Below are positions 43,270-45,667 of a stretch of DNA of 64,000 nucleotides, one piece after another; the stretch's first letter is position 1; every line of letters begins with the position of its first letter. The notes below the pieces were generated by a model. That model was not told the origin of the DNA and searched no databases. It saw nothing but the letters and a program-made list of their open reading frames with translations. The DNA is from a phage, in sequence record PZ496581.1; one strand, given 5' to 3'. Made by a program: the position numbers and the translations under genes.

Positions 43270-43896
43270 TTACTTACGAGTTTTTGCATACTGAGCAGCG
43301 TCAGCAGCCAAACGACCTGCTTGTCGAAGTTTTTCTTTAATCTCATCATGAAGTGGTTGAGTATACTTCAAACCTTCGATAGTCAAATAAAGACGATAAA
43401 GGTCTGGGGTATCAAGGTTGTTGATATGTTGGCCATTACGAAGAATATTGAATTCACGAACGAGTGAAGATGTATCAGATTCAATATCACGAACAAGCGA
43501 AGATAGTTGTTTATATTTTTTTTCCAGGCTAGAAGTATCAAACTTAAGAGCAGGAGCTTTAGGAGTTGCTTTTACTTCCGGCTTAGGCTCAGGTTTTGCT
43601 ATTGCTTTAGGGGACGCAGGTTTAGGAATGGTAGGAGCAGGTTTTACTTTAGGCGAACCCGATTTAGCAGAAACACCACCACTAACAATATCTTTGAATG
43701 CTTTAGAAGCTCTGTAATATTCTTTTTGGCTGGAAGTGTCGATACCGTACATGGCTTGAACGTTTTTGAAAAACTCTGTACTAGTTTTTGTACCAGAAAT
43801 AGCATCGTAAGCAGCTTGCCATTTCTCTTTTGTCATACGTACACCGGCTTCGGTGATTACTTCCGTTTCGGCTAAAAATTCATTAAAAGTATACAT
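43270..43896 (-). CDS. internal-protein-like (CTS-like MYTFNEFLAE), 208 aa, Pro/Lys/Ala-rich middle
   Basis: ATG start; CTS-like N-terminus; late promoter TATAAATA upstream. Confidence 0.55.
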   Translation of the reverse strand: MYTFNEFLAETEVITEAGVRMTKEKWQAAYDAISGTKTSTEFFKNVQAMYGIDTSSQKEYYRASKAFKDIVSGGVSAKSGSPKVKPAPTIPKPASPKAIAKPEPKPEVKATPKAPALKFDTSSLEKKYKQLSSLVRDIESDTSSLVREFNILRNGQHINNLDTPDLYRLYLTIEGLKYTQPLHDEIKEKLRQAGRLAADAAQYAKTRK

Positions 43897-43940: not shown

Positions 43941-43969
43941 AAAAAAGCCCCAACCTTTCGGAAGGGGCT
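43941..43969 (-). terminator. rho-independent terminator, second copy of the 33436-33464 element
   Basis: GCCCC...GGGGC hairpin plus U-tract; ends the tRNA/small-RNA transcript. Confidence 0.65.
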
Positions 43970-44011
43970 ATATACCTTGTCGGGTTCCCACCTGCTAAGG
44001 CAAGTGTTTGT

Positions 44012-44103
44012 ACGAAACGCCGGGATTCGAACCCGGTTATTAAGCAGTTGACGCTACTCAATATTTTTAAAAGGCCATATCTCGACCATATCCGAACGTT
44101 CCG
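44012..44103 (-). ncRNA. tRNA-like small RNA (canonical T-arm, paired acceptor ends; no clean cloverleaf)
   Basis: Minus strand has CCGGG-TTCGAAT-CCCGG and complementary 7-nt ends CGGAACG/CGTTTCG; about 92 nt. Confidence 0.3.
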
Positions 44104-44635
44104 TCAAAAACGCTACTCGGCTTACGGCAAAGATATTTCCTCGAATCGATAATTCTGTGCGCCGTTTCTGCTGTGATGTAAGGGGATATTAACGAATCAT
44201 AAAGATTTATTAAGACCAGTCCTTACTCAGGGAACATCAGTCCGACGACTTGCCGGTAGCGACCCGGCTTCTTATTTTGGCATATCATCAATTTGCTCTC
44301 GACGCCGACGCCATAGATTAATCGCTTCATAAACACATTCAGCATTTGGTATATGACGACAATAGTATAGTGATTCGCGTTTCTGGAACCGATGTTGTAA
44401 TGGAATTTCGTTTAAAAGGTCTTTACGGTCAAAGTATTCAAAACTAGTTAACCCTGAACGGTTTTTAAGAAACTTCCAATGTCCGAATTCATTTTGAAAA
44501 TAGACATAATCAGCATGCTGATACAGCGAATTAATTAACCTATCGGAAATAACTGTTTCACGTTCGTTAAAATAAAACGTTAAGTCATGAACTACCAGAT
44601 AAATATTGCCCTTTCATATTTTCCTCACTTGAAGT

Positions 44636-44711
44636 TGGTGCCTCTAGAAAGATTTGAACTCTCACCATTAACCTTAGAATGATTATATGCTATCCATTAC
44701 ACTATAGAGGC
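44636..44711 (-). tRNA. tRNA-Arg (anticodon TCT)
   Basis: Hand-folded cloverleaf: acceptor GCCTCTA/TAGAGGC, anticodon loop ATTCTAA, T-loop TTCAAAT, encoded CCA; 76 nt. Confidence 0.8.
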
Positions 44712-45362
44712 AATTAAATTATTTACAATATCTTCTTTATAAACTTCAGCATAATGAAGTTCATATATTTCCCATCCTAATGATTTTATAATATCATGGC
44801 GTTCTTTATAATAAGGGGCCAAAATCTTTTTCTTAGGATTGGAGTAATGTTGATTTCCATTAACTTCAATAATAATCTTTTTATCTATTAAAGCGATATC
44901 CGTGCAATACGCTCGGTTTTTAACCGGTTGGTATTCTTCAATAAATGAAATTCCGTTTTCTATTAATTTAGATTTCAAAAATTCACAAGGCACAGATTTA
45001 AATTTTGTATTTTTCTTCCAAGGATGTTTATCGGGGTTTTCATTCAACCATTTTTTCCGAGCATTAGATATTTTTATTCTAGATTCCTCAGAGTGTTCTC
45101 TACCTAATGAAGCGGCTGACAATTTTTGTCTAGTCTCTTCCGAAATTACTACAGGAACACCAGTCTTTTTAGATACAACATACTGGTTTAAATTACCTGA
45201 AGCTATACGTGCTTTATTCATTGCTGCAATGGCTGATTTAGAACTTTCTTTATACAATTCCAATTTAGGGTTGGATTTACACCATCTAGTGTGGTTAGCC
45301 ATCCATCCTTTAGGTTTATTAGAAATATCAAATTCCATATTACAATGTTTACAAATGCTCAT
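44697..45362 (-). CDS. freestanding endonuclease-like protein (N-terminal Zn finger, NUMOD-like repeats, C-terminal DUF559/Vsr-like nuclease motif), about 221 aa
   Basis: CKHC...HTRWC; IALIDKKIIIEVNGNQHY motif; lies inside the tRNA cluster; stop overlaps tRNA-Arg 3' end. Confidence 0.55.
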   Translation of the reverse strand: MSICKHCNMEFDISNKPKGWMANHTRWCKSNPKLELYKESSKSAIAAMNKARIASGNLNQYVVSKKTGVPVVISEETRQKLSAASLGREHSEESRIKISNARKKWLNENPDKHPWKKNTKFKSVPCEFLKSKLIENGISFIEEYQPVKNRAYCTDIALIDKKIIIEVNGNQHYSNPKKKILAPYYKERHDIIKSLGWEIYELHYAEVYKEDIVNNLIASIV

Positions 45363-45372
45363 TACCAATTAT

Positions 45373-45390
45373 CTCCTATAAATATAGGAG
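45373..45390 (-). promoter_or_regulatory. perfect 8-bp palindrome CTCCTATA-aa-TATAGGAG over the endonuclease RBS
   Basis: Hairpin would sequester the AGGAG SD of the 45362 ATG. Confidence 0.45.
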
Positions 45391-45435
45391 TATTTATTAT
45401 TTGGATAGAGCACTTAATTTACTTCGTTTAAATTA

Positions 45436-45507
45436 CTGGCGCACTTGGACTCGAACCAAGATAAAGGAGTTAACAGCTCCCCGTAATAACCTTTATACGA
45501 TGCACCA
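45436..45507 (-). tRNA. tRNA-Asn (anticodon GTT), no encoded CCA
   Basis: Hand-folded: acceptor TGGTGCA/TGCGCCA, anticodon loop CTGTTAA, T-arm CTTGG-TTCGAGT-CCAAG; 72 nt. Confidence 0.6.
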
Positions 45508-45513
45508 TTTGTT

Positions 45514-45588
45514 TGGTGACCCTGGCTGGTTTCGATCCAGCTACCTATCAGTTATGAGCTGACAGCTCTCCCATTGAGCTACAGGGCC
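45514..45588 (-). tRNA. tRNA with CAT anticodon (elongator Met or Ile2), encoded CCA
   Basis: Hand-folded: acceptor GGCCCTG/CAGGGTC, D-arm GCTC-AATGGGA-GAGC, anticodon loop CTCATAA; 75 nt. Confidence 0.8.
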
Positions 45589-45667
45589 TAAATAACTTTC
45601 TATTATGAAAGGCACTTTAGAGCACCTTTGGTAATAGAGGGTACGAATTAATAATAACACATAATTC

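Follow-up and report, generated by a model that had tools for sequence, protein, structure and literature searches.

Maps and annotations of the tRNA region of the T-even phages have existed for decades and cover the two stable RNAs rnaC and rnaD, so that the region is in this sense already known. Knowledge of rnaC, a stable RNA of the phage also referred to as species 1 RNA, goes back to the 1970s. In T4, the map order is Arg-rnaD-rnaC: rnaD (NC_000866.4 71053-71171) abuts tRNA-Arg and lies 7 nt upstream of rnaC (NC_000866.4 70908-71046), which is found at the downstream end of a cluster with eight tRNAs. In the T4 cluster, a homing-endonuclease gene stands free immediately upstream of tRNA-Arg; tRNA content differs between T4 relatives, and a gene for tRNA-Asn, missing from T4, occurs in T2L, RB1 and RB3 (Brok-Volchanskaya et al. 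2008, PMC2330249). RNA-seq found both rnaC and rnaD among the late RNAs of T4, and a Northern blot was probed for rnaC; by these two methods T4 rnaC is reported to accumulate in infected cells as a stable species of ~140 nt (PMC9697503). Their roles are given as unknown (PMC3014915, PMC9697503, PMC12685909), and our literature search found no assigned function for either RNA.

Here, we describe the corresponding region in a 64-kb window, that is, the whole stretch of phage DNA analysed (64,000 nucleotides). Its minus-strand cluster is very probably the tRNA/stable-RNA transcription unit of a T4-like coliphage of the RB69/Mosigvirus type. On the minus strand the order is tRNA-Ile2(CAU), tRNA-Asn, a homing-endonuclease ORF, tRNA-Arg(UCU), an ORF150c-like gene (frameshifted), rnaD, rnaC and a terminator-like hairpin, and map comparison shows the cluster to be syntenic with those of T4, Mizar and JS09. 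An earlier note, made from the letters of this sequence, had recognised a phage tRNA cluster together with a stable non-tRNA species recalling the T4 tRNA region; this holds, the element being the homologue of T4 rnaC/species 1. The identity was right, and what needs correcting is the anatomy, namely the boundaries of the RNA and the pairing partner of its 3' end. As a finding the homologue matters little, since identical rnaC sequences are already public. The comparative fold, which defines the true acceptor stem, a long arm that keeps its length and two loops covarying as a putative kissing pair, makes the question of function experimentally concrete.

ARAGORN and the Rfam covariance models, with which the note had suggested checking its hand-folded tRNAs, both report exactly three tRNAs on the minus strand, compared with the eight in the T4 cluster. 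These are a tRNA with a CAT anticodon and an encoded CCA (45514-45588; 59.4 bits), tRNA-Asn(GTT) (45436-45507; 53.6 bits) and tRNA-Arg(TCT), which has an encoded CCA and reads AGA (44636-44711; 57.6 bits). All three scores exceed the RF00005 gathering score of 29 bits, membership being taken as a cloverleaf above this score plus a 7-nt anticodon loop, and ARAGORN assigns the anticodons cat, gtt and tct, so that the three genes lie exactly where they had been placed by hand. As also described before, tRNA-Asn has no encoded CCA (UAA comes after the discriminator) and is separated from the CAT tRNA by 6 nt (45508-45513). Mosigvirus JS09 lacks tRNA-Asn, and there tRNA-Arg comes 6 nt after the CAT tRNA. 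The choice that had been left between Met and Ile2 for the CAT tRNA resolves towards Ile2: its acceptor stem (GGCCCUG/CAGGGUC) and the 5' part of its D arm match T4 tRNA-Ile, which ARAGORN too calls ‘Met(cat)’, and it has an Ile2-type body with a CAU anticodon and an acceptor strand GGCCC.. forming C4-G69 and C5-G68. With its TilS determinants, this body resembles E. coli ileX, and not metT or fMet. Judged by these sequence features, the gene most likely encodes an AUA-reading tRNA-Ile2 of the lysidine type, orthologous to T4 tRNA-Ile, in which TilS would turn C34 into lysidine and which IleRS would charge.

The free-standing ORF between tRNA-Asn and tRNA-Arg (44697-45362, minus strand) encodes a putative homing endonuclease of 221 aa from its ATG, its last 15 nt overlapping the 5' end of tRNA-Arg. 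By synteny it fills the slot occupied in T4 by segB. In contrast to SegB, the product is not of the GIY-YIG type and has weak Pfam matches to RAP (4.3e-5), DUF559 (2.5e-4) and NUMOD3 (1.5e-3), of which DUF559 just reaches its gathering score (21.3 vs 20.6 bits) and RAP (23.8 vs 24.2 bits) and NUMOD3 (18.9 vs 20.4 bits) fall just below theirs. The ORF also matches phrog_9084 ‘homing endonuclease’ at 1.6e-5, and the note in the Mizar record names NUMOD3 and DUF559; JS09 lacks the ORF at the corresponding site. A stem scan identified a perfect 7-bp hairpin, CUCCUAUA-UUU-AUAGGAG, at 45373-45390 on the minus strand. The GGAG Shine-Dalgarno sequence that precedes the endonuclease ATG (45362) lies within the 3' arm of this hairpin, which suggests a role in translational control.

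The tRNA-shaped RNA at the downstream end of the cluster is rnaC, a 139-nt RNA at 44011-44149 on the minus strand. All 139 nt align to T4 rnaC at 98.6% identity, with only two substitutions, one of which replaces U-A by U.G in the second hairpin. T4 rnaC likewise directly follows rnaD at the cluster's downstream end and has an identical fold. The rnaC query matches 748 phage records, including annotated rnaC in T4, RB33, RB59, Kha5h and others, and a covariance model that we built for this RNA (R1) scores the full-length copy in the window at 160.4 bits with all helices intact. The tRNA-like element seen earlier at 44012-44103 is thus real, yet it is not a 92-nt unit but the 3' two-thirds of rnaC. 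That this element has no canonical cloverleaf is borne out by the covariance models, which reject a tRNA, and by the silence of ARAGORN: RF00005 gives no match to 44012-44103 even at E<=10, and the clan member that comes closest is tRNA-Sec, which reaches 16.6 bits on 44012-44104 where its gathering score is 47. Searches for tmRNA with ARAGORN and Rfam reported none in the region. We therefore dropped tRNA-Sec (sub-threshold), tmRNA and Y-RNA-like identities for rnaC. With canonical tRNA, tRNA-Sec and the tRNA-like domain of tmRNA, rnaC shares an acceptor stem that stacks on a T stem of 5 bp, the T loop UUCGAAU is present in most lineages, and after the acceptor stem the genome has N-C-A-A, which is close to the CCA end of a tRNA. 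Unlike these RNAs, rnaC lacks a D arm, a 7-nt anticodon loop and any mRNA-like part, and it stays below all Rfam thresholds. R1 found a single copy of rnaC per phage in a search for paralogues (26 loci); its other matches were weak, namely the tRNA-Asn genes of the window and of Mizar (19.4 bits) and one unidentified locus (15.5 bits).

The conserved fold of rnaC, as derived from the aligned sequences, is a four-way junction composed of an acceptor stem, a long arm of 64-65 nt, a second hairpin and a T arm, all given here in minus-strand orientation. In the acceptor stem, the 5' strand CGAUUCG (44142-44148) pairs with 44013-44019 (CGUUUCG), leaving a tandem U.U in mid-stem. This stem covaries across about eight T-even-like genera through compensatory A-U/G-C and G-C/A-U changes, and in Tegunavirus the U.U sites become U-A and C-G; the 3' strand of rnaC thus covaries with the true 5' end of the RNA. 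The long arm (44075-44138) is an irregular 64-nt hairpin with a conserved 3-4-nt bulge, in which helices 3 and 4 covary, and its length is 64-65 nt in seven of the seven lineages folded, although the sequences diverge. It is followed by the second hairpin of 9-10 bp (44038-44063), where five pairs of helix 6 show compensatory changes, and by the T arm, CCGGG-UUCGAAU-CCCGG (44020-44036), where helix 7 is 100% paired with two compensatory pairs; the perfect T arm reported before was thus correctly seen. In the consensus structure 95% of cells are paired, compared with 84% in shuffles, and 22 pairs show compensatory changes, a value reached by 0 of 500 shuffles; in slid controls paired cells fell to 36-51%. 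Reading a conserved single strand of rnaC as an anticodon, ‘C-U-NNN-A-A’ with UUU, CUU, UCU, UUG or UAU according to lineage, was rejected: there is no flanking stem, the triplet varies within lineages (UAU/CAU), one sequence is short of a base, and in other genera the linkers are 8-11 nt.

The apical loop of the long arm (UUGACG, 44102-44107) and the loop of the second hairpin (CGUCAA, 44048-44053), both 6 nt, are exact complements of each other. They are complementary in 26 of 26 unique sequences, which represent three haplotypes, and the resulting helix 5 is 100% paired with two compensatory pairs. Remaining complementary through just two independent compensatory changes, the loops imply a kissing interaction. 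Fully paired 6-nt loop-loop complexes such as TAR-TAR* are known, in which every loop base is complementary, as in rnaC; the modelled difference is that both rnaC loops would belong to one tRNA-shaped molecule. An alternative that we consider unlikely, though far from negligible, is that the loops do not kiss within one molecule and instead join rnaC molecules into dimers or multimers, or that one loop binds a target on another RNA. The long arm corresponds to ~25 bp and the second hairpin to ~10 bp, so that an intramolecular contact needs sharp bends, and covariation does not tell cis from trans pairing. On the other hand, the conserved 3-4-nt bulge, an asymmetric internal loop and the constant 64-65-nt arm fit a bent arm reaching a fixed partner, a flexible linker of 8-11 nt would permit closure, and an external target would give no covariation between the two loops of rnaC.

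rnaC occurs in Tequatro-, Mosig-, Kanagawa-, Teguna-, Gelderland-, Karam-, Moon- and Marfavirus, with a length of 138-142 nt and 69-100% identity across these roughly eight genera. In some phages it is located mid-cluster between tRNAs, and in PEi20 and Kosakonia 305 it has no neighbouring tRNAs. Single-stranded blocks of rnaC (GAGGA, GGCCU, AAAAU and UAAC) are invariant, and one Kanagawavirus lineage has the non-canonical T loop UGCAUGC. A loose gapped pattern scan of IMG/VR gave more than 120 loci, mostly by chance, among which a profile search found four more rnaC copies (L021, L034, L084 and the truncated L122), and a tighter pattern applied to metagenomes returned 13 loci that yielded seven more unique variants of T4- and Marfavirus-type sequences. 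In many GenBank records rnaC and rnaD go unannotated or lie under spurious ‘hypothetical protein’ CDSs, and Rfam has no family for either RNA; the coordinates and the rnaC covariance model given here could mend these gaps.

The maintenance of rnaC across about eight genera, whether mid-cluster or without flanking tRNAs, suggests that selection acts on rnaC itself. The RNA is not a decoder; of a tRNA it retains just the half made up of acceptor stem and T arm. RNase P, the CCA-adding enzyme and 3' exonucleases recognise this half, and it is therefore probably a built-in handle for excision and stability. A 64-nt bent arm and a 10-bp hairpin, whose 6-nt loops would pair with each other, stand in place of the D and anticodon arms, and in the proposed model rnaC would mimic a tRNA and so tie up a tRNA-binding protein late in infection. 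Candidate targets might be a tRNA-targeting defence nuclease, a modifying toxin or a processing enzyme. We put forward only tentatively, and with little confidence, the full version of this model, according to which rnaC is a dedicated tRNA mimic, processed and probably CCA-tailed, with a body locked by the 6-bp loop-loop contact, that occupies or misleads a host protein recognising the top half of tRNAs. The Kanagawavirus T loop makes a requirement for strict tRNA mimicry less likely. If the tRNA-mimic reading is true, the 50-year-old species 1 RNA gains a counter-defence or regulatory function.

It is very unlikely that rnaC is instead functionless, be it a decaying pseudo-tRNA, a passive spacer in the tRNA operon or a by-product of its processing. 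T4 mutants with deletions of the tRNA region grow on laboratory hosts, which counts in favour of such a passive element. So do the absence of a 7-nt anticodon loop and the role reported as unknown (PMC3014915, PMC9697503). Against it stand the constant length, the 22 compensatory pairs, the invariant single-stranded blocks, the covariation between the loops and the persistence of rnaC where no tRNA flanks it, as neutral decay would not keep such features.

Upstream of rnaC, the stretch 44104-44635 had been described as ORF-free and as possibly holding further small RNAs. The first statement is correct in that no ORF of at least 60 aa with a start codon is listed there, but the stretch contains, in addition to the 5' 46 nt of rnaC and the whole of rnaD, a disrupted 114-codon gene at 44272-44617. 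The second was right with respect to rnaD (species 2 RNA), whose homologue is found at 44157-44275 on the minus strand with 85% identity to T4 rnaD over 120 nt. In the consensus fold, rnaD consists of a 5' hairpin, CCGG-GUCGCUA-CCGG, and a long hairpin with a conserved base and a hypervariable tip; the 5' hairpin and the closing helix are common to the RNA described here and to T4 rnaD, whereas the central tip has diverged. rnaD lies 7 nt upstream of rnaC, a distance that is always 7-9 nt in T4-type relatives, and an nhmmer search found no rnaD outside the T4-type lineage. In contrast to T4, where rnaD abuts tRNA-Arg, a 345-nt ORF lies between the two here, and 3' processing of tRNA-Arg therefore cannot make the 5' end of rnaD.

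The remainder of the stretch (44276-44617) aligns to a protein gene, the homologue of RB69 ORF150c (phrog_3355; 114 aa in phage Mizar), which T4 lacks. Based on its translations and the Mizar alignment, the minus-strand gene at 44272-44617 is frameshifted: one extra G in the run 44609-44611, just after the ATG, is the sole length difference from the Mizar gene, and this 1-nt insertion puts the ATG out of frame, which is why the homologue appears ORF-free. It is either a pseudogene or the product of a homopolymer sequencing error. Additional small RNAs in 44276-44635 are highly improbable: they would be in keeping with the lack of a listed ORF of at least 60 aa, but the sequence is 97% identical to the annotated Mizar gene and matches phrog_3355 at 2e-50, the match to RB69 ORF150c is supported by the JS09 annotation, and Rfam, ARAGORN and R1 found nothing there.

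The reading of 44012-44103 as an independent tRNA-like RNA of ~92 nt, with an 8-bp acceptor stem formed beside the T arm by its ends ACGGAACG and CGUUUCGU, can hardly be correct: these ends do pair in this sequence, a 106-nt segment folds accordingly (z = -3.4) and Rfam tRNA-Sec aligns weakly (16.6 bits) to exactly the 92-nt span, but T4 annotates a 139-nt RNA starting 46 nt further upstream, the pairing is not conserved across relatives (no compensatory pairs in 15 sequences, three of the eight pairs departing only by breaking) whereas the alternative partner at the true 5' end covaries, full-length rnaC folds better without it (-50.2 kcal/mol, z = -4.6), and ACGGAACG is instead taken up by a covarying stem and the kissing loop.

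With respect to transcription, a terminator-like hairpin, GCCCC..GGGGC followed by UUUUUU, is predicted by folding at 43941-43969 on the minus strand, ~40 nt downstream of rnaC, where the tRNA/stable-RNA transcription unit probably ends; a consensus scan missed the hairpin because of its internal U.U loop. A search with T4 late-promoter motifs (TATAAATA) found no minus-strand promoter for the cluster and a sigma-70 scan returned fewer sites than chance, so that the promoter of the unit was not located. By analogy with T4, host enzymes would cut the tRNAs, and likewise rnaC, from a precursor, with RNase P forming the 5' ends, and tRNA-Asn would be completed by 3' trimming and the CCA-adding enzyme. 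The three tRNAs may top up the decoding of AUA, AGA and AAY, codons much commoner in the AT-rich phage than in E. coli, although this argument is correlative and the tRNAs may equally replace host tRNAs cleaved or depleted in infection. AGA and AUA are used 7.5 and 11.2 times per 1000 codons in the ORFs of the window; the corresponding values for E. coli K-12 are roughly 2 and 4-5.

The window derives from a T4-like coliphage, its 1.75-kb tRNA region being 96-99% identical to Escherichia phages HY126, Mizar and F2, with partial matches to the Mosigvirus phages JS09 and HX01. The tRNA-like element described here in the earlier note (44012-44103) was matched by BLAST in 748 phage records, and the annotated feature under the match is rnaC in T4, RB33, RB59 and Kha5h. 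On the T4 reference map, the order is tRNA-Ile, segB, tRNA-Arg, rnaD (species 2 RNA, 119 nt) and rnaC (species 1 RNA, 139 nt). Because T4 rnaC aligns full-length to window positions 44149-44011 (98.6% identity across all 139 nt), the element is, on this alignment, the 3' two-thirds of rnaC. The rnaC/tRNA cluster is an already known feature. No model accepts 44012-44104 as a tRNA; the best match, to tRNA-Sec, reaches 16.6 bits where the gathering score is 47, and owes these to the T arm and an 8-bp pairing of the ends. The element had thus been rightly recognised as a real feature without a canonical cloverleaf, and its likeness to the stable non-tRNA species of the T4 tRNA region is borne out by the rnaC homology, while its boundaries move to 44011-44149 (minus strand). 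Families for rnaC and rnaD are absent from Rfam 15. In public phage records, rnaC is often unannotated or lies under short 'hypothetical protein' CDSs (e.g. collected loci L018, 1516-1653; L152, 342-515; L153, 362-472; and L154, 504-632; among many others).

For the fold, 26 unique full-length rnaC sequences were assembled from annotated phages, IMG/VR and metagenomes, and copies from five more genera were added afterwards; the set covers Tequatro-, Mosig-, Kanagawa-, Teguna-, Gelderland-, Karam-, Moon- and Marfavirus. A four-way junction is supported by RNAalifold and by explicit counts of pairs in an alignment of 15 sequences: 95% of cells are paired, versus 84% in column shuffles and 36-51% with the partners slid, and compensatory changes occur in 22 pairs, a number reached in none of 500 shuffles. 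In the acceptor stem, the true 5' end (44148-44142) pairs with the 3' end (44019-44013). The stem shows A-U/G-C and G-C/A-U exchanges, and Tegunavirus has U-A and C-G in place of its tandem U.U. The remaining elements are an invariant 3-bp AGG/CCU helix, a long arm, a single-stranded linker of 8-11 nt (7 nt in L013 alone) ending with an invariant AAAAU, a second hairpin of 9-10 bp and the T arm as fourth arm of the junction. The long arm, an irregular hairpin of 64-65 nt, diverges strongly in sequence between lineages, yet its length and 3-4-nt bulge are constant. The 'paired ends' ACGGAACG / CGUUUCGU proposed previously have to be given up as the end stem: they have zero compensatory support, three of the eight pairs depart in divergent lineages only by breaking, and their bases instead form part of an inner stem that covaries, and of its loop. 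The full-length RNA folds more stably without them (-50.2 kcal/mol, z = -4.6), compared with z = -3.4 for the 106-nt segment that adopts this pairing. This covariation-backed structural model is the modest added value of the present analysis.

The long arm has an apical loop, UUGACG (44107-44102), whose exact reverse complement, CGUCAA (44053-44048), forms the loop of the second hairpin. Both loops are invariant save for two joint changes, UUGAUG/CAUCAA in Tegunavirus and UUGGCG/CGCCAA in Marfavirus; the resulting helix (helix 5) is 100% paired in the 15-sequence alignment, and perfect 6-bp complementarity is kept in all 26 unique sequences and the five further genera. This makes a good case for pairing between the loops, short of proof since only two independent covariation events are involved. 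The constant arm length and bulges suit an intramolecular kiss, but pairing between molecules is possible.

In rnaC of the Kanagawavirus IME523 type (L003, 1477-1616, and L016), the T loop reads UGCAUGC, not UUCGAAU, and the base of the long arm is altered (AAAU to ACCC, A-UGG to GCUCG), which may reflect a coupled tertiary contact or relaxed constraint. In the 3' flank of rnaC (window 44008-44010), the base past the acceptor stem's trailing U is A, U or C and is followed by CAA in all lineages; Marfavirus has U-CCA-A, an encoded CCA end, and other lineages have ACA or UCA. This pattern suggests a 3' end nearly templated as a tRNA-like end.

Exactly three tRNA genes were found in the 64-kb window by ARAGORN, all on the minus strand, and the Rfam tRNA model confirms the three tRNAs first read by hand-folding: tRNA-Arg(tct) at 44636-44711 (57.6 bits, CCA encoded), tRNA-Asn(gtt) at 45436-45507 (53.6 bits) and a CAT-anticodon tRNA at 45514-45588 (59.4 bits, CCA encoded), all well above the gathering score of 29 bits. 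Two further details of that reading hold in the sequence, namely the tRNA-Asn without an encoded CCA (UAA follows the gene) and its 6-nt spacing from the CAT tRNA. The latter had been left as Met or Ile2; its acceptor stem and the 5' part of the D arm are those of T4 tRNA-Ile, likewise labelled 'Met(cat)' by ARAGORN, and it is more like E. coli ileX than the Met tRNAs, so that it is most likely the AUA reader. AGA and AUA are used in the window ORFs at 7.5 and 11.2 per thousand codons, several-fold higher than in E. coli, which fits the usual codon-supply role of phage tRNAs.

In JS09 and HX01, the CAT tRNA lies 6 nt from tRNA-Arg, and compared with these the window carries an ~800-bp insertion (44697-45507) comprising tRNA-Asn and a putative homing endonuclease (ORF 44697-45362, minus strand; weak NUMOD3, DUF559 and RAP-like matches, and a phrog_9084 match), the final 15 nt of which overlap the 5' end of tRNA-Arg. 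In T4, by contrast, this slot is filled by the unrelated GIY-YIG gene segB (PMC2330249). At 45373-45390 lies a perfect 7-bp hairpin (plus strand of the palindrome, TATAAATA), whose minus-strand 3' arm includes the endonuclease ORF's ribosome-binding site, GGAG. The arrangement recalls the translational sequestration reported for I-TevI, e, soc and 49 of T4 (PMC3014915).

The stretch 44104-44635, earlier taken to be ORF-free with possible small RNAs, does contain the remaining third of rnaC and all of rnaD (44275-44157, 85% identical to T4 rnaD); the rest (44272-44617, minus strand) is a disrupted gene. Non-coding by nature can be dismissed for the latter, which is 97% identical to a 114-aa gene annotated in Mizar, a homologue of RB69 ORF150c with a phrog_3355 match at 2e-50. 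Its sole length difference is one extra G at 44609-44611 (GGG versus GG in Mizar), three codons past the ATG, so that the reading frame of that ATG is lost after 10 codons; the gene has either recently become a pseudogene or contains a sequencing error in the homopolymer. Seen in T4-type relatives only, rnaD lies 7-9 nt upstream of rnaC in every relative having it, and consists of a conserved 5' hairpin, a closing helix and a hypervariable tip. The long-hairpin tip (columns 50-100 of the rnaD alignment) is swapped wholesale between close relatives, with the 5' hairpin and closing helix invariant. In a 2025 evolution study (PMC12685909), a SNP in rnaD was reported to have arisen convergently in the course of adaptation to the host.

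The best-supported account of the region, by analogy, is the T4 one, in which a minus-strand polycistronic precursor would be cut by host tRNA-processing enzymes into the tRNAs and two stable RNAs. The decoding loop is absent from rnaC, which retains only the tRNA half recognised by these enzymes and could hence be excised and stabilised like a tRNA. In Edwardsiella phage PEi20 and Kosakonia phage 305, rnaC is flanked by protein-coding genes, and the 400 nt on each side contain no annotated tRNA, so that its retention does not depend on the tRNA cluster. At the level of comparative sequence, this survival without neighbouring tRNAs, the cross-genus conservation and the compensatory changes show that selection acts on rnaC itself. 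Its function is stated as not known in reviews and recent omics papers (PMC3014915, PMC9697503); our guess, held with low confidence, is a tRNA mimic occupying a tRNA-binding factor late in infection.

About 40 nt past rnaC lies a terminator-like hairpin with a U-run (43969-43941, minus strand), directly followed by a T4 late-promoter motif (TATAAATA, 43939-43932 on the minus strand) that precedes a 208-aa ORF (43270-43896).
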